DNA of 64,000 nt. Origin: a virus. Taxonomy: Duplodnaviria > Caudoviricetes. The stretch is taken from positions 128,001-192,000 of the IMG/VR virus record IMGVR_UViG_3300021255_004427. One strand, given 5' to 3'. Positions 35,941-50,892 of this stretch are shown here, one piece after another. The number at the start of each line of letters is the position of its first letter. Position 1 is the first letter of the stretch. The translations under genes and the position numbers were made by a program. The notes beneath the pieces are model-generated. The model worked only from the letters and a program-made list of their open reading frames with translations, had not been told where the DNA came from and made no database searches.

Positions 35941-36957
35941 TTGACCATGAACAGACTCAAGACTTATGAGGTATTATTAAGGGCGTTAGATAATACCTCC
36001 CTAGCCACAATTGATATTAGTGTAAACAAAAAAGGAAAAAATATTTTCCAACGCACCAAGGGCGTAGAGGCAAATGGATTCCCTGTGCCTTACCTTAGTT
36101 TTATAGAAGAAAACAAGAGCCCATTTACGTTAAAGACAACGAATACTCAAAAAAACTGGAATGGAAAATTAGAATATTCTACGGACAAGAAGATATGGAA
36201 CGAATGGAACGGAGAGGAGATTTCTTCTTCTGATAACGGCGAATTATTTTTGCGAGGAGAAAACAATTCTCACATTGTAGACGCAGCAAAAAAAGCATCA
36301 GAGCAACCATTCGTGTTCAGTGACAACAATCGAATACAATGCATCGGAAACATCGAAACGTTACTTGACTGTAAAATGGTAATGAATGGGGAGCATCCGC
36401 GTATGGATGACAGGTGTTTTAGTGCGCTTTTCTACAAAGCAAAATCATTGACATCCGTATATGAATTAGAATTACCTGCAAAGCAATTGACGTACGCATG
36501 CTATAATGCTATGTTTTGCGACACATCAATCACGAAAACACCAAAAGAATTACCTGCCATTTCTTTAGCAGAAGGTTGTTACAGTGCTATGTTTCAAGGC
36601 TGTGCAGATTTAATTGAAGCGCCAAAAACACTACCTGCGAAACAAACTTTTACATATAGCTATTCCAGTATGTTTTCCCAGTGCAGCGCCTTGGTTAGTG
36701 CGCCCGAAATATTAGCTACGTCTATGGGAGTAGGTTGCTGTAACGCCATGTTTAGCGAGTGCGATTCGCTTATTACACCTCCTTCTAAGTTGCCTGCAAC
36801 TAACCTGGGAAAAGGATGTTATACAGGCATGTTCATTGGGAGCTATAAGTTAAATGGAACAATCCACTGTCCTACATCTACGGCCAATGACCCCAACAGA
36901 CTTGACATTAACGTCGATATTCCAGCTAATACAGCTACCGTAGTATATGACTTATAA
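35941..36957 (+). CDS. Adhesin-like repeat protein (N-terminus of the LRR family, body paralogous to 21384)
   Basis: KTYEVLLRAL N-terminus, YLSFIEEN.PFTLKT, LPAxxLxxxCYxxMF repeats, PANTATVVYDL end. Confidence 0.8.
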   Translation: MTMNRLKTYEVLLRALDNTSLATIDISVNKKGKNIFQRTKGVEANGFPVPYLSFIEENKSPFTLKTTNTQKNWNGKLEYSTDKKIWNEWNGEEISSSDNGELFLRGENNSHIVDAAKKASEQPFVFSDNNRIQCIGNIETLLDCKMVMNGEHPRMDDRCFSALFYKAKSLTSVYELELPAKQLTYACYNAMFCDTSITKTPKELPAISLAEGCYSAMFQGCADLIEAPKTLPAKQTFTYSYSSMFSQCSALVSAPEILATSMGVGCCNAMFSECDSLITPPSKLPATNLGKGCYTGMFIGSYKLNGTIHCPTSTANDPNRLDINVDIPANTATVVYDL

Positions 36958-36969
36958 TCCCTAAAATAC

Positions 36970-40857: not shown

Positions 40858-40886
40858 TTGCATAAACATCCTTTTTATGGTATACT
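40858..40886 (+). promoter_or_regulatory. SigA promoter inside the late region
   Basis: TTGCAT-17 bp-TATACT with the TG extension. Confidence 0.75.
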
Positions 40887-40920
40887 ATTTCGGTATATTT
40901 ACAGAGAGGATGTTTTTGTT

Positions 40921-41142
40921 TTGGCAAAGAAGATCAACTATGACGAAAAAATTGCGACATTGGAGCAGAAAATCGAAAAGAAGGCTGCTCAAATTTCTGC
41001 CCTAAAAAACGAGCTCAAAAAGTTGGAAGCAGAAAGCCGCAAGGAAAAATATGAAAGCATTATCGAATTTATCGATAACAAAAAGTTGCCGCTGGATCAA
41101 GTCATGACAGCTCTTGAGATGGTAGCGGAAGATAACAAATAA
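40921..41142 (+). CDS. Small coiled-coil protein in its own transcription unit
   Basis: GAGAGGA RBS and TTG start at 40921 (MAKKINYDEKI...). Own promoter, and terminator at about 41151-41195. Confidence 0.75.
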   Translation: MAKKINYDEKIATLEQKIEKKAAQISALKNELKKLEAESRKEKYESIIEFIDNKKLPLDQVMTALEMVAEDNK

Positions 41143-41211
41143 CTGTATAGAAGAAGTCTGTGATTGGTTTTATCCTTTCGCGGGCTTCTTTTTTATTAAT
41201 TGCCGCTTTTC

Positions 41212-41247
41212 TAACTGTGGGTAAACAGTAAGACAATAGCACAGTTA
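41212..41247 (+). repeat. 36-bp site A (inverted partner of site B at 50808)
   Basis: taactgtgggtaaacagtaagacaatagcacagtta, 32/36 identical to the reverse complement of 50808-50843. Confidence 0.85.
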
Positions 41248-41361
41248 CGATTCGAGACCGTAAAGTCAAATGCTCAACACAAAATAGCGTATCCACTTCA
41301 AGGTAATGTAACCAACGAAGAGCGGAATAGGCCGCTCTGGTATTAAGAAAGGCGGTTTTTA

Positions 41362-41976
41362 ATGTCTCACGTAGTAAGTAAATATGAACTGCAGCATGTA
41401 ACCGTGGATGAGCTCCGTCAGATGGCATCTGATTACCGGGAAAGCATCTGGGCACAGGCACAGTCTGCCGGCCATGAACCGAAGATCTACCTCCACTGGA
41501 CGGCTGGCCACTTTGGTCAGTTTTGGGATGATTATCATGTCCAGATAGATGAAGATGGTGAAATCTATGTCTATGGTGCTCTGGATGATGTTTTGGCCCA
41601 TACTTGGCGCCGTAATACCGGTGCTATCGGTGTAACGCTCTTGTGTGGTTACCAGGCCAATACTTCCGACCTTGGTCCAGAAGCTCCGACCGAAGCACAG
41701 ATTGAATCCATGGCTCGTGCCGTAGAAGCATTGGCTGATGGCCTGTGGCTGACTATCAGCAAAGAATTCGTCGCTACCCATGGCGAGGCAGCAGACAACG
41801 AATGCAATGACTGGTGTCATGAAGAGTATGGCCCGAAGTCAACCTGTGAACGCTGGGATTTGGAATACCTGCAGACAGATGAAAGCCCGAAATTCAATCC
41901 CTGGGCAGAAGATGGTTCCCGCGGCGGCGACGTAATCCGTGGTAAGGCTAACTGGTATCGCAATCAGCGCGGTTAA
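41362..41976 (+). CDS. N-acetylmuramoyl-L-alanine amidase (Amidase_2-like endolysin)
   Basis: IYLHWTAG, YH..ID.DG.I, AHTWRRNTGAIG, PT.AQI and THGE motifs. Confidence 0.88.
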   Translation: MSHVVSKYELQHVTVDELRQMASDYRESIWAQAQSAGHEPKIYLHWTAGHFGQFWDDYHVQIDEDGEIYVYGALDDVLAHTWRRNTGAIGVTLLCGYQANTSDLGPEAPTEAQIESMARAVEALADGLWLTISKEFVATHGEAADNECNDWCHEEYGPKSTCERWDLEYLQTDESPKFNPWAEDGSRGGDVIRGKANWYRNQRG

Positions 41977-41990
41977 GAGAGGTAAACAAT

Positions 41991-42593
41991 ATGTCAGTAT
42001 TTGACCTTTCCCATTGGCAACCGGCAAACCGTATCGAAGAGCTGGTCGAAGGCGGAAATTGCGACGGCGTTATCCTGAAGCTTGGGGAACGCAATGTAAA
42101 AACCGGTGAAATTGAACTTGATCCGATGTTTATCACTCATGTAAACGAGGCGGTCCGTTTTGGCCTGCCCTATGGTATCTATATCATGGGCCGTGCAAAT
42201 AATGAAAATGAAGCTTTGGAAGAAGCTCAATGGGTAAACGATCGTGTAGCTGAACTCCTGAACGGACAGGAACCTGCACTGGGCACATGGTTTGACCTGG
42301 AACGGCCAGAAGTAAAACGGGATGGCGTTTATGAAGATTATCGTTTTGCAATTCTCCACTTAAGTGATTGGTGGGGTGGCAGCCATAAAATCGGTATCTA
42401 CGCATCCTACTTATACTTTGAGGGCTATCTGGATATCGGTAATATGGCGGCAAACAGCATCCCCGTCTGGAATGCCCAGTATGGTTTTGTAGATTCCATG
42501 CGCCAAAACTATCCATATATCAAAACAGTCTTGTGGCAGTTTACGAAAAACGACGATTATCAGGATGAGAATGTGTGGTACGGCTGGTATTAA
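41991..42593 (+). CDS. GH25 muramidase endolysin
   Basis: FDLSHWQ, VILKLG, YGIY, WFDLE (DxE), GIYAS, VWNAQY and LWQFT. Confidence 0.9.
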   Translation: MSVFDLSHWQPANRIEELVEGGNCDGVILKLGERNVKTGEIELDPMFITHVNEAVRFGLPYGIYIMGRANNENEALEEAQWVNDRVAELLNGQEPALGTWFDLERPEVKRDGVYEDYRFAILHLSDWWGGSHKIGIYASYLYFEGYLDIGNMAANSIPVWNAQYGFVDSMRQNYPYIKTVLWQFTKNDDYQDENVWYGWY

Positions 42594-42660
42594 GCCGCCC
42601 GCAAAATAATATAAGTGCCCCTAAGTGGGCGCTTATTTTGTAAAGAAAGGAAAAACAAGT

Positions 42661-43218
42661 ATGGATTTTCTAAAGAAACACAGTAAGACTATCATGGCCA
42701 TAATCATTGTAGTATTAATAGCTGCGCTCATAAGGTTAACTTTTTTTAAAAAAATACCCGAGCCGGAAATAGTAACCGTACCCGAGGTATCCCAAAAAAA
42801 TCTCCAACAGTATTTCCCTATGGAGACAAAAGCTACTGTGAAAGATATGACGCACCAAATCCAGCGTGCAAAAGAAACTCAGACTCCGCAATACCGCTAT
42901 TATACCGCGACACAGCAAGAGGCGGATAATAAGGCCAAAGAGTATGGTAATGTGCAGAAGGCAGACAAAATCGTAAAAGAGACACATAAAGTTGAAGTCA
43001 AGGATGATAACGGCAATAAGACCCATGTTATCGAAAATGACTACTATGCGATTAATCTCGAACGAAAACACCGCATTAAAACCGGCGCGGCAATGATTGA
43101 TCATGACGCTTATGTTACGGTCGGATATCAAAACCGGAATGTGGAATACAAGGCCTACTACGCACCTACAGCCAATAAGGCGGGAGTTGGTGTAGAGGTT
43201 ACAATTGCAAAATGGTGA
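42661..43218 (+). CDS. Lysis-cassette envelope protein, spanin candidate
   Basis: N-terminal TM helix, polar stalk and four C-terminal amphipathic strands ending in Trp. Confidence 0.55.
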   Translation: MDFLKKHSKTIMAIIIVVLIAALIRLTFFKKIPEPEIVTVPEVSQKNLQQYFPMETKATVKDMTHQIQRAKETQTPQYRYYTATQQEADNKAKEYGNVQKADKIVKETHKVEVKDDNGNKTHVIENDYYAINLERKHRIKTGAAMIDHDAYVTVGYQNRNVEYKAYYAPTANKAGVGVEVTIAKW

Positions 43219-43230
43219 GGAAAGAATACT

Positions 43231-43794
43231 ATGCTTAGAAGAATACCAGGATTAAGTAAAATGTTTAACGGCGGGACGCGTACAGTGGGTGATATGCCAA
43301 ACCTTTTCCAGTTTCCGGAGTATGCGCCAGGAGACGCATTAAAACAGTATAAAGGTGGCGGCTCGTATCTGTTTAACGCTAAACTGAGGGAAGGGATTCC
43401 TCTCGACGCACAGGACAAGGCACTACAAAGAGGCTTAGATCGTGACCTGAACGCTCTACCAGACTATCAGGAGCCGACATTCAGGTCGTATGATTTCCTT
43501 GATCAGGAAAGTTTAAGCGAATTTTTAGAGCAGCATAAACCCGGCCATATGGTGCAGTATCCTGCTTACACATCATCCGCCAAAAGTCCTAATGCATACT
43601 ACGCTCCGAACGGAACGGGCATGCAGGCACTGATGAAAATTAATGGCAAACATGGAAAAGACTTAGCACACGTAGAATCCGCCTCAAACAATGAGCAGGA
43701 AGTGCTGTTTGGACGAAAATCTATGTTCAGGGTTAATAATATTGGGTATTCCCCTGAGATGAAGACTTATTTTGGCGAAATGGACGAAATATAA
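43231..43794 (+). CDS. Stand-alone ADP-ribosyltransferase (VIP2/Alt-like, R-S-E clade)
   Basis: Y...SY..N..LR, TFRS (Arg), YPAYTSSA (STS-like) and NEQEVLF.R...FRV (ExE). Confidence 0.88.
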   Translation: MLRRIPGLSKMFNGGTRTVGDMPNLFQFPEYAPGDALKQYKGGGSYLFNAKLREGIPLDAQDKALQRGLDRDLNALPDYQEPTFRSYDFLDQESLSEFLEQHKPGHMVQYPAYTSSAKSPNAYYAPNGTGMQALMKINGKHGKDLAHVESASNNEQEVLFGRKSMFRVNNIGYSPEMKTYFGEMDEI

Positions 43795-44780
43795 TCCGCC
43801 ACCAAACTTTTATACTTGTCAAGAACAGAGCATGATATATGGCTAGGTATCTCGTATTGTGCTCCAAATATATTACCCGCAATGGAGGCAACGGTATCGC
43901 TGTCTCCATTTATATTTGCGGCGCGATTTATACAAGTATATATCCTATCGCCTGAGAGTATATGATAGAGAGCGAGGCCCAAAGCATTTGGTCCAATCCA
44001 GGCATCTCCAAAAGCGCCATAAAAAGTACGAAACGCAGATGTGCCTTTAGTATCGGCACACGTTATGGCGTTGTATACGTAGTTATACGTTTCATTGAGG
44101 GGAAGCGTCATAAGTTCTCCAATACGTTCAAGATAGGACTTGTAAAATTCCAGGGCTGATAACAGAGCCGTTTTTACATCCATGTTATCACGAAGCAAGA
44201 AAAAGATAATTAGCGAAAATACGCCCGCGCTGCGCCATGCTTCTTTATGACCATGCGTAATTGCCGCGCACCGCATGGATAACTCAAAAACATATTCCGG
44301 CGGCTCGTTAATCAGAAAGCCGAACGGGGCAGAGCGCATAACGGTGCCATTCCCCAGACTTTCGTTATACTGCTTATTAAGTGTCCCCATGCAACCGGAG
44401 CGCAGAGAGTCAATACAGGCATGGCCAGGAGCCCGCATAACATATAAATCATCTATTTTCCATAGCTCGCCTACGTGGGCTATTTTTTCGTCTATGGCTC
44501 CGGGGCCATACTGCGTATTAAACCAACGGAGATATGATTCGTACATAATTTGCACACGCTCATCCATCGATTTACCCTGACTGAGTGCTAACCCCTCAAG
44601 CGTAAACAATGTCATCTGGGTATCATCTGTGATGGCATCTCCTGGATTTAGCTCCTGCTTACCCTGCTCGCCATATTGCGATCTGATTTCGTCCAGGGAC
44701 ATCATTTCTAGGTCAGAACCAAAGGCATCTCCATAGGCCCCGTATAAAATACATCGATACATTCTATCCTGTTTAGTCAC
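43767..44780 (-). CDS. ADP-ribosylglycohydrolase (DraG/ARH/Tri1 family)
   Basis: GDAFG..LE, ITDDTQMT, GNGTVMRSAP, ITHGH and NGDSDTVASIAG.I.GA. Confidence 0.95.
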   Translation of the reverse strand: MTKQDRMYRCILYGAYGDAFGSDLEMMSLDEIRSQYGEQGKQELNPGDAITDDTQMTLFTLEGLALSQGKSMDERVQIMYESYLRWFNTQYGPGAIDEKIAHVGELWKIDDLYVMRAPGHACIDSLRSGCMGTLNKQYNESLGNGTVMRSAPFGFLINEPPEYVFELSMRCAAITHGHKEAWRSAGVFSLIIFFLLRDNMDVKTALLSALEFYKSYLERIGELMTLPLNETYNYVYNAITCADTKGTSAFRTFYGAFGDAWIGPNALGLALYHILSGDRIYTCINRAANINGDSDTVASIAGNIFGAQYEIPSHISCSVLDKYKSLVADYISSISPK

Positions 44781-44825
44781 CTTACCACCGCCCTTCTAAG
44801 CTACACGCTTGCCTGATTTAAAATA

Positions 44826-44834
44826 ATTATATCA
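44826..44834 (-). promoter_or_regulatory. Extended -10 SigA promoter for the ARH gene
   Basis: Minus strand reads TGaTATAAT about 46 nt upstream of the GTG, just downstream of a terminator hairpin (about 44846-44879). Confidence 0.6.
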
Positions 44835-44899
44835 CGCTGAAAGAGAAAACAAAAGCACCGGGGCTTTGCCCCGGCGCTTCCGTATTGTGAGTATGTGGT

Positions 44900-45145
44900 T
44901 CAGATGTAGACATCCTGTCTGTAAAGATCCTCTTGTCCAAATGGGTCGGCAATGCCATTTTCTTCCAATTGTTCCAGGCGGCACATATTCTTGTAGCGCA
45001 AATCCTGGTTCTCTAAGAGCAGCTGTGTTATATCCTCCCGTTCCCTGAGAGTCAGGTAACGGAATGTGTCAGCCACGAGCAAGCGAATATCTTCTGTTGA
45101 CAACTGTGTAATTAGGTCCATAATCTTCTCTCTGGAGTCCTGCAC
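44900..45145 (-). CDS. Small hypothetical protein divergent from the repressor
   Basis: GGAGGGA RBS and GTG at 45145, 81 aa. Confidence 0.65.
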   Translation of the reverse strand: MQDSREKIMDLITQLSTEDIRLLVADTFRYLTLREREDITQLLLENQDLRYKNMCRLEQLEENGIADPFGQEDLYRQDVYI

Positions 45146-45337
45146 AAAAATCCCTCCGTTTGTGCGCATGGCGCGGGTTAGCGCTATTGCGTAATCGAAT
45201 TTAGCAACTCGGCGAAGGCTATATATGTGAAATCGGATTACACATATATGGTAGCACGTCTGCGCCAAAAAATCAATGTGTAACTTGCGGAAAACGATTA
45301 AACAAACAAAACTGTCACCCCTTTTTCGATAATAAGC

Positions 45338-45444
45338 TTGCAGTGTGCGCCACCGTATGCTAAAATGAAATCAACTTCAAAATAACATGCGAATATGCAA
45401 CAGCTTGCATAACTGATTGTAACTTGTTGCATGAGATTTGTCAA
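45338..45444. promoter_or_regulatory. Face-to-face SigA promoters with two palindromic operators
   Basis: + strand TTGCAG(45338)-17-TAAAAT(45361). - strand TTGACA(45444)-17-TACAAT(45421-45416). Operators atgcaa-cagc-ttgcat (45395) and ttgtaa-cttg-ttgcat (45417). Confidence 0.75.
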
Positions 45445-45458
45445 TAGGGGGTGAAACC

Positions 45459-45872
45459 TTGAATTTTGCAGAAAAATTAAAAGCGCTCCGAAAGAAGAAG
45501 GGGTGGACGCAAAGGGAGGTAGCAGAAAAAATTGGTGTTTCTCCGAGAACTTACGCGTCTTATGAATTGGAGGGGCGAGAACCGAAAGATATAGACAAAT
45601 ATTATGCCCTGGCCGAAACATTCGGAGTTTCAAGAGATTACTTTATAGAAGCGTCTAAAAATATTACAAGAATTAATATTGTCGATATGTTTCATGGAAT
45701 AGGGGGTACATCCGATAGAGATAGAAATCATAAAATAGCAAAAAATCTCACAAGCGAACTTGTAACACTCTTCATGGAGCGGCGTTTAAGCTCTACAGTT
45801 CGCGATGAAATAGCTAAAAGAGTTATGGACGCATATTGGGAAGCCAGAAAGGAGGACGAGTCATGCTTATAG
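45459..45872 (+). CDS. Xre/Cro-CI family HTH repressor
   Basis: FAEKLKALRKKKGWTQREVAEKIGVSPRTYASYELEGREP...LAETFGVSRDYF. Confidence 0.92.
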   Translation: MNFAEKLKALRKKKGWTQREVAEKIGVSPRTYASYELEGREPKDIDKYYALAETFGVSRDYFIEASKNITRINIVDMFHGIGGTSDRDRNHKIAKNLTSELVTLFMERRLSSTVRDEIAKRVMDAYWEARKEDESCL

Positions 45873-46339
45873 ATGATTATAAAAAACTCTTAAAAAGTTT
45901 TTACATTGACTATTTTATGCATGTAAGAACATCCATGCGCGAAGCGTTTAGCGAGCTTAAAATGAAGACCCAGATAACACTTGAAAAAAATAGGGTTGAC
46001 CAAAATGAGCTTATGCGTAAAATGGCTACAGGCGAAATGCTTAGCGAAGAGCAAGAAAAAGCAATGAAAGAAATTCTGAATATTGTAAATAAAACCGATG
46101 AGACAAAAATGATCGATATTTGGATTCTTGTAAGAAAGAGGAAAAAAGTTAAGAAATTAAATTTTATAACATATATTGGGTATGGAGAAGAGGCAGTAAA
46201 CGAAGCAAAAAACATTCTTGGGGATAATGCGGAAATTGTAAGAAAAGATGGAACTACGTATATAAAAAACAAAAAAACTAATGAAACAATATATGTTTAT
46301 CCGTTGCGGGAAGTCGTTTGCCCCTTTGAAAATAAATAG
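45863..46339 (+). CDS. Hypothetical protein
   Basis: AAGGAGG RBS and ATG at 45863, AT-rich. Confidence 0.75.
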   Translation: MLIDDYKKLLKSFYIDYFMHVRTSMREAFSELKMKTQITLEKNRVDQNELMRKMATGEMLSEEQEKAMKEILNIVNKTDETKMIDIWILVRKRKKVKKLNFITYIGYGEEAVNEAKNILGDNAEIVRKDGTTYIKNKKTNETIYVYPLREVVCPFENK

Positions 46340-46650
46340 AAGTCGCCCCCACTTCAAACGCGAAGCGTTAAGTGGGGGCGCTCGGTAAAACATAGATATG
46401 ATGAAATGGTCAGGTAAAAAATCTTACAGCCAGTATCGCGGCAGTCATTAAGACCAGGTAAACGAGCAGTGCAGTGGAAAGATCGGAGTCACTTCTTGCA
46501 TCCTTAAAAGTGATTGATGTTATCAACCATAATATAATCACTTCTACAAAGATGAAAGAGAAAATGCCGAAAGGAAGAGAGGCGGCATTTTTCTCTCTAA
46601 TCTAAAGAGGCTGATAATTAAGAAAAAGGAGAATAGTATAAAAAGAGATA

Positions 46651-46714
46651 ATATTGTAAATATATCCAACTGTGGTTAACGACAATTACACACAGTTGGA
46701 TATATTTACAATAT
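46651..46714. repeat. Perfect 24-bp inverted repeat (site C) upstream of the recombinase
   Basis: atattgtaaatatatccaactgtg-16 bp-cacagttggatatatttacaatat. Confidence 0.95.
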
Positions 46715-46766
46715 GAAAACCATATACGGCTTTCAAGATGCATACCCCTTCAAAATGCAGAATATT

Positions 46767-46795
46767 TTGCTATTGCCTACTACTTGTAGTATAAT
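46767..46795 (+). promoter_or_regulatory. SigA promoter of the recombinase gene
   Basis: TTGCTA-17 bp-TATAAT. Confidence 0.75.
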
Positions 46796-46816
46796 ATTTT
46801 AAAGGTGGTGATTTGT

Positions 46817-47803
46817 ATGGCCAGCATAGCTCCAGTACAAACTGAATTGGGATTTAAAACTCCCATGGATGAGAACCTGGTAACTCCAGATTACTTTGTG
46901 GCTTATTACCTGCAGTTCTTGCCGCGTTATATTGCTAACGGGCGCCCTACTGATGATACGCTGCGGGATTACAAAATTCATATAGACAGCTTTTTAAGAT
47001 GGTGCGATGAACATAACCGGCATCCGTTATCCATTCATGATTACCAAATGCGTATGTATATGGAATGGATGGTAAACCGCGAATACACCGATAACACCAT
47101 CGCTATTAAACTGTCGGCAATTCGAGGGTTTTATCAGGCGGCGCTAAAAATCGGCCTCATAGAATTAAACCCGTGCGAAGATTTAAAAGCTGATAGAAAG
47201 CTTGTCTGGGATGAGAAATTCCGCTTTTATTCTACGGAGCAAATAGAGATAATGAATGACTATATCAAAAATACCGCAATAAATGATTTTATTCGCTATA
47301 GAGATATGGCCATATTGTATCTGATGGGTGTTGAAGGTTTGCGCAACGTAGAAGTTCACCGCCTTTGCGATGAAGATATTAACTGGGAATACGGTTCTAT
47401 ACTTATCAGAGGTAAGGAGCATGGCGGAATTATTTACCCATCTGAAGAAACTCTGGAGGTTCTCAGACGCTATATAGAAGCGCGGCCAGAAAATAAAAAA
47501 GAGGGGGCTTTCACCCCCACTATCACATCTGACCATCGTCATAAATACAGAAGAATCTCTAGAAATGGTATACGCAATATCATGAATCGGATACTCGAAG
47601 GCTGCCAATTAAAACATCCAGGATACTCCTGCCATATTCTGCGACATAGCTGCGGTACAAACCTTTATAATGAGACGAAAGACTTGCGGCTTGTGCAAGA
47701 ACAACTTCGCCATAATGATCCGCAGATGACGGCCAGATATAGCCATGTTCATGAGCGTATGACCAGAAGGGCGACTTCTCGGTTGGCGCCGGAGATAGAT
47801 TAA
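46817..47803 (+). CDS. Tyrosine recombinase (XerC/D-like integrase or resolvase)
   Basis: SAM-like N-domain, GLRNVEV (R), RGK (K), HILRHS (HxxR), LRHND (H) and TARY (Y). No obvious N-terminal arm-binding domain. Confidence 0.95.
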   Translation: MASIAPVQTELGFKTPMDENLVTPDYFVAYYLQFLPRYIANGRPTDDTLRDYKIHIDSFLRWCDEHNRHPLSIHDYQMRMYMEWMVNREYTDNTIAIKLSAIRGFYQAALKIGLIELNPCEDLKADRKLVWDEKFRFYSTEQIEIMNDYIKNTAINDFIRYRDMAILYLMGVEGLRNVEVHRLCDEDINWEYGSILIRGKEHGGIIYPSEETLEVLRRYIEARPENKKEGAFTPTITSDHRHKYRRISRNGIRNIMNRILEGCQLKHPGYSCHILRHSCGTNLYNETKDLRLVQEQLRHNDPQMTARYSHVHERMTRRATSRLAPEID

Positions 47804-47828
47804 CTAATAGGATTGGAGGAAAACGGAA

Positions 47829-48230
47829 ATGAAGTATATTTTAGAAATCGAATCCCATAAAGACCCGGAAGAAATTGAATGGCTGCGCAAATATATCGGT
47901 AGGGAAAACGTTTTTTGTTTTGATGACGACACTATATATGGAAACGACTATAATACTAAGGATTTTTCCGAACAATTTGGATATCCTAACGGAAGGAAAG
48001 GCTTAAAATGTACAGCGAAACTGATTAGAGTTGGTCGTACGGAAAATATTGATCACTGGTTTGCTATTTTGTGGAATGAATATCGGACTATAATCAAATT
48101 TGAAATAGATACAACAAAAACTGCCAGCCGATACAAACCTAGCAGTTATGGTTGGTATGAAGACGAATACGCAGTCTATCGAGGTCGCTCTGCAGACGGG
48201 AGTGGCTTTACAGGTAATCCATTCATTTAG
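47829..48230 (+). CDS. Hypothetical protein
   Basis: GGAGG RBS, 133 aa, last + strand gene before the strand switch. Confidence 0.75.
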   Translation: MKYILEIESHKDPEEIEWLRKYIGRENVFCFDDDTIYGNDYNTKDFSEQFGYPNGRKGLKCTAKLIRVGRTENIDHWFAILWNEYRTIIKFEIDTTKTASRYKPSSYGWYEDEYAVYRGRSADGSGFTGNPFI

Positions 48231-48232
48231 AA

Positions 48233-48263
48233 CAAAAAAGCGAGCGTTATCCGCTCGCTTTTT
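48233..48263. terminator. Bidirectional terminator at the convergence point
   Basis: aaaaaagcgagcg-ttatc-cgctcgcttttt. Confidence 0.9.
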
Positions 48264-48264
48264 C

Positions 48265-49983
48265 TTATTCGAGTCGCCCCTTAATCTGTGCATCCAACAG
48301 GTCAAGGTTGTAATACGACGTATAAAGAACCTTACCATTTTCCGGTGTGTTTGCTGAAGCCTTCATCGTGCAGGCGTGAGAAACATTATTGGTGTTGATA
48401 ACGAGAAGGTCAACATCGTTAAGCTTCTGTGTATCGAAGCTCTTACCGTTTCCTATATCCTTAAACTTTGGATGACGGGCGATTACTTTTGCACGCCAGC
48501 TATCTGTTCCGCCGGCCACAGCAATCTTGAGATTAATGTTGGCAAAAGTGTCTTCTTCTGCTGCTACAGGCTTCTTCTCAGTAACAACAACAGACTCCTC
48601 TTCAATATCCTGCACAGACAGTGCCTCAAGCTCTTTTGTCTTTTTGCGCAGTTCCTCGCGGAGCTCGGAGATTTTATCCGACAGGGCAATCTTTTCACTG
48701 ATCGCGTCCTGATATTTACGAACATAATCTTCTTTCTGCTTGGAAAGCTCGTCAAACTTACTTCTCAGATTACTGTAATCTGTAGAGAGCTTAACCAGTT
48801 CTTTATTCTGCTTCCGGTTTGCACCATTTACTGAGCGTTTCTGATTGGCTACGCTTTTAGATAAAACATCTTGCGACTTTAAAAGCTCTTCAATTTTATT
48901 AGAAAGAGTATTATTTTTACGAGCCAGGTCTGTTTTTTCCGCTTTTAATACGGAAAATTCATTATTTCGAATGGCAATCTCTCGTTCAAGATTTGTTACT
49001 TTGTCCGAGAGGCTCGTTATCTTACTATTGTTCTTTGTGATAACATCCTTAAGTTTCTGGATCTTGTTCAGATTCCGTTCAGCTTCGTACCGGTAATACC
49101 ATATTGGCTTGAGCTGCGGATGAATATGCGCAGCAACGTATTCCACGGCTGTACTATATGTAAAATCATCTTTTTCCCATTCGCTAACAAAAGGATCTGA
49201 AGGAACAGACATTACGAGCTCTTTTTTTATGAGCTCAAGGGTTTTGTTGATGTCATCAGTGTTGATAATACCATCCATAATATCGGTGGCACATTTGCAG
49301 ACTTCTTCGTAAAAATCATTTTCGTTTTCTAACGAATAAATACATTCCGTAGCGACTCTCATTTCAATTGCGCGAGTTAAAGAATCTATATGTATATGCC
49401 TTCGATTGTAAAAACTGATTATATCGTAAACTAAAGCAAAGCAAAATAAATCCTTTTCTGCAGAAATAAAATACTGATCATGGTCTTGTAACAATGTGGA
49501 ATATTTTTCCTCAATTTCTTCCAAGCCATTATAAGGAGGAAGCTCGCTAATATGCTCATTAACGATGTGTTCAAATTGGCGCTCTTCTTTTGTTCCGTCA
49601 ATATCAAACATCAATTGCCATATCTGATAAACAAATGCTAATCGTATGCACTTTAAAACATCGGGAAGTTGACAACTGTCATTTTGATCGAGGAGCCCCA
49701 TAGCAAGAAGTGTATAATATGCACCTTGAATGCGGCAATGTAAAAAGAAGTTTGGCGTGCGCTCAAAATACTCTTTCTTAATGGTATCCTCGTTTGCGTT
49801 TAAAAGCTCGAGAAGTTCGTCTGTTTTTCCGCTTTTTTCTAGCTCTATGGCCTGTTGTAAAATTTTAAAAGAACGCCCCTTGCTAATGTCTGGTATGAGC
49901 TTATCTTTTAGTCTGTTTGAATTGTTCTGATAAATATCTGTTAATATTGGTGCAGATCTAATGCTATATTCCATGTTAACCAC
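48265..49983 (-). CDS. Coiled-coil protein with a C-terminal DUF2325-like domain
   Basis: Long heptad region, IAVAGG...W and DLLVINTNNVSH. Confidence 0.75.
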   Translation of the reverse strand: MVNMEYSIRSAPILTDIYQNNSNRLKDKLIPDISKGRSFKILQQAIELEKSGKTDELLELLNANEDTIKKEYFERTPNFFLHCRIQGAYYTLLAMGLLDQNDSCQLPDVLKCIRLAFVYQIWQLMFDIDGTKEERQFEHIVNEHISELPPYNGLEEIEEKYSTLLQDHDQYFISAEKDLFCFALVYDIISFYNRRHIHIDSLTRAIEMRVATECIYSLENENDFYEEVCKCATDIMDGIINTDDINKTLELIKKELVMSVPSDPFVSEWEKDDFTYSTAVEYVAAHIHPQLKPIWYYRYEAERNLNKIQKLKDVITKNNSKITSLSDKVTNLEREIAIRNNEFSVLKAEKTDLARKNNTLSNKIEELLKSQDVLSKSVANQKRSVNGANRKQNKELVKLSTDYSNLRSKFDELSKQKEDYVRKYQDAISEKIALSDKISELREELRKKTKELEALSVQDIEEESVVVTEKKPVAAEEDTFANINLKIAVAGGTDSWRAKVIARHPKFKDIGNGKSFDTQKLNDVDLLVINTNNVSHACTMKASANTPENGKVLYTSYYNLDLLDAQIKGRLE

Positions 49984-50206
49984 CTCTAACCTATACTCAA
50001 CTTAAATTATACATAAAATAAGAATAAAAAATCAAGCAAAATATTCAAAAATCAAAAATAACCGCTCTGGGAAACCCGTAGAGCGGTTATAGACATTTAG
50101 GCATATAATTATATACAAAAAGTTTTTCGTGGGCATTGTGGGCGAATCTGAGGGGCAGATTTTTCGTCCCTCATCCAAAATATCGAAAAACGGAAAGTGA
50201 CCGGGG

Positions 50207-50671
50207 TTATGCCGCACTCTTCCCTGTTTGCAATGACACTTTGTCCTGGCCATAATCAATATAGCCAATCTTTGGTCCAAGCTGATCCTGCCATGCTCTT
50301 ATGAATGAACGTGTCGCAACGAAGCTGGAGCCGATTCTTGCCGATGCCTGTCCAACAGTCAGCTTCTCACCCATAATAAGATCGTAGAGAATTTTCCACT
50401 TCTGCTCGCGAGATTTCTGTTCTGCTGCCAGTTTAGATTCGTTGAAGTCCGCTTTTGTGTCTACGAGGCGATATACCTTCTTAACATTATCTACGACCCA
50501 TCCTTTTGATTTGAATGTGCGCTGGATTTCTCCGCTTTTTAGCGGTTCGCCATCGTACGTAGCAATTTCGCCGGCACGACGTTTAAATTTCTTCGGGTTC
50601 TTTACTTCAGGATGGCGCTCGCACCAGTCCATTTCAGCCTTCTTAGTCCAAAAGTATGTTGTTGCTGCCAA
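50207..50671 (-). CDS. Hypothetical basic protein with a possible C-terminal HTH
   Basis: GGAGG RBS, LTVGQASARIGSS. Confidence 0.7.
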   Translation of the reverse strand: MAATTYFWTKKAEMDWCERHPEVKNPKKFKRRAGEIATYDGEPLKSGEIQRTFKSKGWVVDNVKKVYRLVDTKADFNESKLAAEQKSREQKWKILYDLIMGEKLTVGQASARIGSSFVATRSFIRAWQDQLGPKIGYIDYGQDKVSLQTGKSAA

Positions 50672-50715
50672 TATTAAATTCCTCCAATCATAAACAATTG
50701 TATGTGTATAATAAA

Positions 50716-50787
50716 CTACTTACGAATAACAATGGGGTCTGCCCCACTTCTTAAATGTATTTTACTACTTACTTATCTAAAAATCAA
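50716..50787 (-). promoter_or_regulatory. SigA promoter with GTAAG(A/T)AG operator copies
   Basis: TTGATT(50787)-17-TAAAAT(50764). Motif copies at 50765, 50746 and 50716. Confidence 0.7.
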
Positions 50788-50807
50788 GTATGTAGCGGAG
50801 TTTTCTT

Positions 50808-50843
50808 TAACTGTGTCATTGTATCACTGTTTACCCACAGTTA
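50808..50843 (-). repeat. 36-bp site B (inverted partner of site A)
   Basis: Minus strand reads taactgtgggtaaacagtgatacaatgacacagtta. Confidence 0.85.
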
Positions 50844-50892
50844 ACCTATAAAAAATAAAGCCGCCCACGAGGGGCGACCACTGAAGATATTT

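Follow-up and report, generated by a model that had tools for sequence, protein, structure and literature searches.

What is served by two near-identical sites that face each other across 9.6 kb of a viral genome, with the gene for a tyrosine recombinase between them? The sites, here called A and B, are in a stretch of 64,000 nucleotides (the window) that runs from base 128001 to base 192000 of one virus record of 224,101 bp, IMGVR_UViG_3300021255_004427. A preliminary description of the window took them to be the ends of an invertible segment. That is not what the relatives of this virus show: the block has one orientation in every assembly that spans its borders, and the centres of A and B differ. 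The reading preferred here is that A and B are mirror-oriented, mutually non-crossing sites for an Xer-type recombinase, placed at the borders of a terminus block that also has a third, dif-like site, C, next to the recombinase gene. Taken as a whole, that reading has about an even chance of being right.

On re-reading, the coordinates and sequences of A and B, and their identity at 32 of 36 positions, proved exactly as first described. In a repeat search no inverted pair of the window is longer than A and B (36 nt, 89% complementary). Their first 18 nt have 2 copies in the window with up to 3 mismatches allowed, where chance would give 0.02. The pattern AACTGTG-N(10-30)-CACAGTT is matched 3 times in the window with an expectation of 0.00, and the more relaxed AACTGTG-N(8-40)-CACAGTT is also matched 3 times in the whole 224,101-bp genome, the matches being A, B and C. 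The scan of the genome for further copies, which had been suggested as a check, thus gave these palindromes only and no dispersed copies. The outer arms of A (+) and B (−) are identical and opposed in orientation, each facing its genome arm. Between a left arm of 14 bp and a right arm of 13 bp, A has the centre AGTAAGA and B has AGTGATA, with 2 positions differing. The inner mini-palindrome to which attention had been drawn, ACTGT-GGGTAA-ACAGT, is present as described in this genome, but it is not conserved in the sister lineage considered below (lineage 2). There is a third exact copy of the 14-bp outer arm outside the window, within a + strand coding region (G000:C1:96166-96179; also G264:C1:88059-88072). 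The copy at G000:C1:96166-96179 is followed at about the right distance by a degenerate CAAT...ATAGTT, is missing from lineage 2, and is probably due to chance or a relic.

Site C is a near-perfect palindrome (29-nt arms, 93% complementary, 6-nt centre) about 110 bp upstream of the recombinase gene, and its core has arms AACTGTGGTTAA and AACTGTGTGTAA on either side of the spacer CGACAA. The recombinase belongs to the Xer-like clade of tyrosine recombinases, having the two-domain architecture and, in alignment, the complete catalytic set R180, K204, H277, R280, H303 and Y312. Its matches by sequence in PDB are XerD, XerA, XerC-like and XerH proteins. Profile searches show it to be the sole PF00589 match in the phage genome and find no serine recombinase there. 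With its gene adjoining an imperfect palindrome whose centre is within the 6-11 bp range, the pair has the form of a single-recombinase Xer/dif module. The outer ends AACTGTG...CACAGTT are common to A, B and C. Both the proposed tie of A and B to the tyrosine recombinase and their kinship with the palindrome upstream of its gene are supported. The 64-bp palindrome was also considered as a protelomerase target and this was dismissed: the enzyme is a 330-aa (amino acid) Xer-like protein and the palindrome centre is asymmetric.

Relatives of the recombinase are almost all from Selenomonadaceae, often several per genome, with one on the 285-kb megaplasmid pSRC1. When the DNA upstream of about 75 homologues was scanned for palindromes, many were found to have one of the 12-6-12 form, 100-250 bp ahead of the start codon, on chromosomes and pSRC1 alike. 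The arms of these sites covary with recombinase lineage; purine-rich types of spacer (CAGGAA or GGGGAA) are frequent. The homologue loci are at convergent strand switches. Across the 35 loci with enough flanking sequence, coding is 71% on the + strand to the left and 76% on the − strand to the right; 18 of the 35 exceed 0.6 on both sides and none is below 0.4 on both. In 3 genomes of Selenomonas ruminantium the XerD equivalog cut-off is not exceeded by any protein; the two that score best as XerD in strain HD4 are its two members of the phage recombinase family. The upstream sites, the convergent strand switches and the lack of a XerD above cut-off combine to suggest a probable terminus module in which a single recombinase gene is next to its site.

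Several features of these bacterial loci deserve mention in their own right. At loci that include L028:9673-9690 and L110:2324-2346, many arms of the family contain a DnaA-box-like TGTGGnTAA, some a perfect TGTGGATAA, and the S. ruminantium chromosomal sites have a perfect DnaA box within 4 nt after the site. A third copy of the arm at L032:9926 (−) and L117:2940 (−), some 40-50 bp to the gene side of the 12-6-12 core, is reminiscent of autoregulatory sites or of the extra arm in FRT. The HD4 homologue has, about 530 bp upstream (L027:9468-9502), a perfect 14-7-14 palindrome whose outer 8 bp on each side are those of loxP (ATAACTTC...GAAGTTAT). Stand-alone fragments that match only the C-terminal ~100 residues of the recombinase family occur in several Selenomonas genomes (L103, L104, L105, L108; L028:11522-11743).

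The phage sites are linked to the bacterial ones in two ways. The chromosomal copies in S. ruminantium (66% identity, adjoining rpsO-pnp) have both 12-bp site arms identical to those of phage site C, while the spacer is TGGAAA in S. ruminantium, CGACAA in this phage and CGTTAA in its sister lineage. The other link involves A and B. Their 14-bp outer arm AACTGTGGGTAAAC has 1 match in 262 Selenomonadaceae genomes. The genome is that of S. ruminantium HD4, where the closest bacterial homologue of the recombinase (71% identity) has the match 73 bp beyond its stop codon. The HD4 site has two arms and is, like A and B, of the long type; its conserved arm faces away from the gene, the polarity of B. 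Since the recombinase gene alone is homologous to the phage at that locus, what is shared is a gene with its site and not a larger fragment. The site arms point to the recombinase as the presumptive binder of A and B, the comparison of arms with recombinases covering three cases for sites of this type. A further match to the A/B pattern in the HD4 genome is within a coding open reading frame (ORF) and was judged to be chance. Integration of the IMEX kind was also considered and is not supported, as the phage and host spacers differ and only phage genes flank the block.

Relatives of the phage fall in two lineages. In lineage 1 (the window, L007, L018-L020 and L123-L125) the recombinase is 99-100% identical to that in the window, and in lineage 2 (L008-L012 and L022-L026), whose sites are denoted A′, B′ and C′, it is 80% identical. 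An alignment search with the 572-aa protein of the block for wider phage relatives returned these two lineages only; no match came from comparing the block with GenBank phages at the nucleotide level, or the recombinase with phages at the protein level. Both lineages have a + site before the lysis genes, a − site before a gene for a 149/154-aa protein, and a C-type site in the interval. The flanks are conserved and the content of the block is mosaic, both within lineages and from one to the other. A/A′ and B/B′ are conserved islands amid intergenic DNA that is largely unalignable between the lineages, which argues for function.

Comparison of block orientation in relatives, proposed as a check on inversion, went against it. 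The junction-spanning assemblies (lineage 1, about 9; lineage 2, about 8), which are from different samples, all have the same flanks and gene order, and no inverted junction was found among those spanning A or B; being consensus sequences, they could hide a minor orientation. A pattern scan of metagenome contigs yielded just two short ones, both with parental junctions. (Matches in L001 and L004-L006 from a 17-mer scan of viral contigs are in unrelated coding DNA and were discarded as chance.) Canonical tyrosine recombination needs matching crossover regions. The lineage-2 centres, ACAAAGCG in A′ and ACCGAAG in B′, differ in both length and sequence. In the pdif system, the natural case that has been studied best, inversions were found only between sites with identical spacers or spacers that differ at 1 position (PMC13141974). 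Nor would any promoter be joined to a different gene by inversion: the promoter-like elements are on the block side of the sites and would move with the block. With a single orientation, no shared spacer and no altered connection, an invertible segment is unlikely.

The genome in which A, B and C reside is that of a phage-plasmid of the P1 plasmid-prophage type. This follows from a Rep3_N protein at 59.9-60.3 kb of the genome (above cut-off in a profile search), an origin region at about 60.6 kb with 4.5 copies of a 22-bp iteron and a tandem pair of DnaA boxes TGTGGATAACTG, a ParA at 35.8-36.4 kb (E 1e-36) and, adjoining it, a weak ParB_N match that is below cut-off. Halfway round a 224-kb circle from the iterons is a position of about 172.7 kb, which falls within the A-B block (169.2-178.8 kb); a 9.6-kb block would include it by chance in about 4% of cases. 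The block is also the place of convergence of two long gene arms. Two close relatives are on contigs that exceed the 224-kb record (L124, an ENA scaffold of 243,798 bp, and L018, a JGI contig of 326,679 bp); the true genome may be larger, or these contigs may be concatemeric or include other DNA.

How might the three sites work together? In this P1-style phage-plasmid of 224 kb the sole recombinase would form, with site C, the same gene-next-to-site module as at Selenomonadaceae replicon termini. Site C and the recombinase would be its dimer-resolution module, the dif/lox-like core being where replicon dimers are resolved. A and B would be two further cognate sites of the same recombinase family, mirrored at the two borders of a terminus or maintenance block with the conserved 14-bp arm toward the incoming genome arm. 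Their centres would be kept different so that there is no mutual recombination and the block is no switch. The recombinase would bind A and B without strand exchange, making each a polar boundary or accessory element. Binding of this sort is the simplest reading because the pair is conserved, with one site per border, fixed polarity and free centres. The boundary could serve to confine converging forks, FtsK-like translocases, SMC loaded from the partition site, or read-through by the phage polymerases, to the block with site C. Of all this, the kinship of the sites, their conservation and placement and the uniform orientation in assemblies are observed, and binding by the recombinase and the boundary role are inferred. 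The exact role of A and B may be as barrier, as accessory or in sister-site resolution. A more specific proposal has the phage-plasmid provide the whole architecture of its terminus: in a 10-kb block one Xer-type recombinase would resolve dimers at the dif-like site and, at A and B, would form a polar barrier or a station for unloading. The virus would thereby have, within its own genome, an equivalent of dif with XDS or of Ter. We offer this only tentatively, with the balance of probability against it.

A number of observations count against the preferred reading. The arm-to-arm spacing of A and B is 4 bp longer than that of C, because of which one protein may not fit both geometries. An arm of A and B matches that of C at 11 of 12 positions, which alone is not significant (about 0.6 chance matches are expected window-wide), so that the case for membership of A and B in the site family rests on both ends, the palindromic layout and the independent co-occurrence in HD4. 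At HD4, however, the A/B-type site is the only one beside the homologue, with no second site of that type within 10 kb, which suggests that the class can be a true crossover site. No flanking extra sites were found within 10 kb at the probable bacterial termini that carry the module. Placement opposite the origin depends on genome length; given a relative scaffold of 243.8 kb and a CheckV rating of the record as 95% complete, the safe statement is that the block is roughly opposite the origin, within about 10 kb. Cumulative GC skew, another suggested check, does have its maximum at 176 kb, in the block, but it is confounded by gene orientation, which alone could produce the peak. Lastly, A and B precede promoters of different types, and a transcriptional role through another protein is possible.

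Inversion of the 9.6-kb block by recombination between A and B, as a phase switch or as a Flp/FRT-like device for reorienting forks, would account for the inverted orientation of the sites, for their shared arms, for the recombinase between them and for lineage-1 centres that differ so little; inversely oriented pdif sites do invert modules (PMC13141974). It is clearly improbable all the same. Besides the uniform junctions and the disparate A′ and B′ centres, all promoters travel with the block, leaving expression unchanged, and the current orientation keeps every block gene co-directional with its arm. The preliminary description had noted that the promoters are inside the block, as they are, and had looked to replication or topology for a purpose; the two sites are, however, far from the origin, unlike the geometry of Flp/FRT amplification. 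Alternatively, A and B could be fully active and, by virtue of their different centres and inverted orientation, heterospecific, each recombining solely with its own sister copy on a dimer or on a co-infecting genome. The outcome would be redundant dimer resolution, or exchange of the 9.6-kb cassette between related phages, without intramolecular inversion or deletion. Though unlikely, this has some support: every A/B copy has both arms, the block is mosaic within conserved flanks, long central regions occur in XerS/difSL, and in HD4 a site of this type stands by itself beside the 71% homologue. Homologous recombination alone, however, explains phage mosaicism, a single core site such as C is enough in all bacterial relatives, and sister-copy exchange gives no reason for strict mirror placement at both borders in both lineages.

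The possibility that A and B are operators for a different protein, whether the HTH_3 repressor, the 154-aa protein with its helix-turn-helix (HTH)-like segment or a host factor, would make them control or insulate the inward promoters of the lysis genes and of the 154/572-aa operon, and their likeness to site C would be a partial convergence. Downstream of each site by 20-55 nt there is indeed a conserved promoter-like element, reading in the direction of the site, the first gene inside B encodes the HTH-like protein and is kept in both lineages, and the arms contain DnaA-box-like TGTGGnTAA. Yet the two promoters differ in type and in distance from their sites, there are no further copies at other promoters in the genome, and the HD4 co-occurrence ties the 14-mer to the recombinase gene alone. 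We regard operators of this sort as unlikely. Hairpins of RNA or single-stranded DNA, for instance a terminator-proximal RNA element, are very improbable. The outer 7-8 nt arms of A and B can pair, and B′ has a matched change (C>G and G>C) in its two outer arms. Against this, the predicted folds, at −8 to −10.5 kcal/mol and with loops of 18-21 nt, are weak and inconsistent between copies, the position that covaries is a C-C mismatch in HD4, Rfam gave no match, and there is no terminator before A′.

Among known systems, the core module of site C and the recombinase has evident counterparts. The phage-plasmid P1 has the Cre tyrosine recombinase and an adjacent palindromic loxP for dimer resolution. 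The phage considered here is similarly a plasmid-prophage that encodes a simple tyrosine recombinase and has a palindromic site beside the gene, but P1 has a single loxP without an extra inverted pair at the borders of a terminus block. In Tn5401, reportedly described by Baum in 1995, the TnpI tyrosine recombinase is said to bind a core site that precedes its gene and further motifs at each of the inverted ends of the element. That resembles the layout of C with A and B; the phage block, in contrast, has no transposase and no target duplication, holds a lysis cassette and is present in every relative examined. (A transposon was considered for the block and rejected: it holds no transposase, its 572-aa protein has no informative family, and its flanks are without target duplication.) Polar Ter-like sites flanking a terminus had been the alternative in the preliminary description. 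This is closer to what is now preferred, since A and B are, like the sites of the Tus/Ter and RTP/Ter fork traps, asymmetric and mirrored around a terminus, here a presumptive one; however, profile searches of the phage genome for Tus (PF05472) and RTP (PF02334) gave no match, and the arms resemble recombinase sites rather than Ter.

The XerS/difSL system of streptococci and lactococci likewise has a single Xer-type recombinase with its gene adjoining a dif-like site as a terminus module, tolerates a long, 11-bp, centre and is an arrangement known also for large plasmids (PMC5357621). It belongs to another sequence family and lacks flanking mirror sites, whereas in the Selenomonadaceae there are several paralogous modules per host genome, with others on megaplasmids and phage. 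The closest analogy for the proposed role of A and B is with the XDS of the B. subtilis terminus, which, to the extent related in articles citing the work (Karaboja et al. 2021, as cited in PMC11894783 and PMC11840125), are non-crossover Xer binding sites near dif that organize the terminus through SMC unloading. As presented in those articles, the XDS differ in being chromosomal, dispersed at several positions and in a host with two recombinases. The pdif modules of Acinetobacter Rep_3 plasmids also have inversely oriented Xer sites that bracket gene modules on Rep_3 replicons, and these modules are shuffled; pdif sites are 11-6-11, are acted on by host XerC/XerD, and invert or delete when spacers match, whereas the phage spacers differ and no rearrangement was seen (PMC13141974). 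Neither A nor B is a pdif site: the phage sites are 34-36 bp with a longer centre, the recombinase is of another family, and there is no sign of module movement.

In a narrow literature search no paper was found that describes the core module, a single-recombinase Xer system or Cre/lox-type resolution system of a plasmid-prophage, for Selenomonadaceae or for phage-plasmids. For a conserved mirror pair of mutually incompatible extra sites around a core site, no described system matched; pdif, Ter, XDS and Tn5401 each share one aspect and fail others. If the preferred reading is right, a tempting false positive is removed, there being no evidence for a phase-variable lysis/lysogeny block, and what takes its place is an uncharacterised single-recombinase Xer-like system which would appear to be the principal dif machinery of replicons in the Selenomonadaceae, megaplasmids among them. 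The module would have been captured by a rumen jumbo phage-plasmid, with arms that are those of the host chromosomal sites and spacers that differ. Same arms with different spacers could allow shared specificity while avoiding fusion with the host chromosome. The conserved mirror pair would then be a compact system for asking about structural, non-recombinational roles of Xer proteins, as reported for XerD/XDS.

The features of the locus are collected in Table 1. Pfam agrees with the gene content first ascribed to the block (lysis genes, ADP-ribosyltransferase and ADP-ribosylglycohydrolase, repressor, recombinase), the families being Amidase_2, GH25, ADP-ribosyltransferase, ADP-ribosylglycohydrolase, HTH_3 and a recombinase of the Phage_integrase family. 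Each site points along the genes just inside it, A toward the lysis cassette and B toward an operon for proteins of 154, 82 and 572 aa. The 154-aa protein, the C-terminal HTH-like segment of which ends Ala-Ala, is kept in both lineages and gave no family match.

Table 1. Positions, in the window, of the sites, genes and signals of the A-B block and its borders
Feature	Position	Strand	Remarks
Site A	41212..41247	+	dif-like; 14-bp outer arm AACTGTGGGTAAAC, variable centre, inner arm ending CACAGTT
Site B	50808..50843	−	mirror copy of site A; outer arm faces right genome arm
Site C	46651..46714	.	64-bp near-perfect palindrome; core 46668-46697 is 12-6-12, dif/lox-like
Xer-like tyrosine recombinase	46817..47803	+	ORF start perhaps 46805; Pfam PF00589 and PF02899 (SAM-like N-terminal)
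Lysis cassette (Amidase_2, GH25, 197-aa membrane protein)	41362..43218	+	first genes inside site A
HTH_3 (Xre/cI-type) repressor candidate	45438..45872	+	
154-aa protein, C-terminal HTH-like segment	50207..50671	−	first gene inside site B; alternative candidate binder
Intrinsic terminator closing the + (structural) arm	41149..41199	+	14 nt before A; −24.7 kcal/mol, z −5.8, U-run
Intrinsic terminator-like hairpin closing the − arm	50859..50879	−	just before site B
AGGTAATGT late-type promoter-like motif and hairpin	41301..41338	+	between site A and lysis genes; kept in lineage 2 as AGGTAATAT
Sigma-70-like promoter TTGATT-17-TAAAAT	50759..50787	−	20 nt inside site B; predicted to drive the 154-aa, 82-aa and 572-aa genes

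Each site had been described as just downstream of a terminator. That holds for both in this genome, but A′ in lineage 2 comes directly after a stop codon, without a terminator, and so terminator followed by site is not a conserved rule. The promoter inside B, on the other hand, has the same spacing to B′ in lineage 2.

Some rearrangement of genes near the sites is also apparent. Between C′ and the recombinase gene, lineage 2 (L008:7272-8178) has a tail-fibre ‘head’ gene, homologous to 36001-36960 of the window, together with four small − strand genes. This insertion of cargo beside the core site is worthy of note. Six independent contigs (L009, L010, L012-L015) stop in the first part of the tail-fibre ‘head’ gene, 200-320 bp rightward of C′, probably an assembly break at its repeated N-terminal docking tag. 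At the left border, the small gene for a coiled-coil protein (40858-41142) is just outside site A here, whereas its lineage-2 homologue (L008:5165-5365) is inside the block after the lysis genes, so that gene order around site A has been reshuffled.

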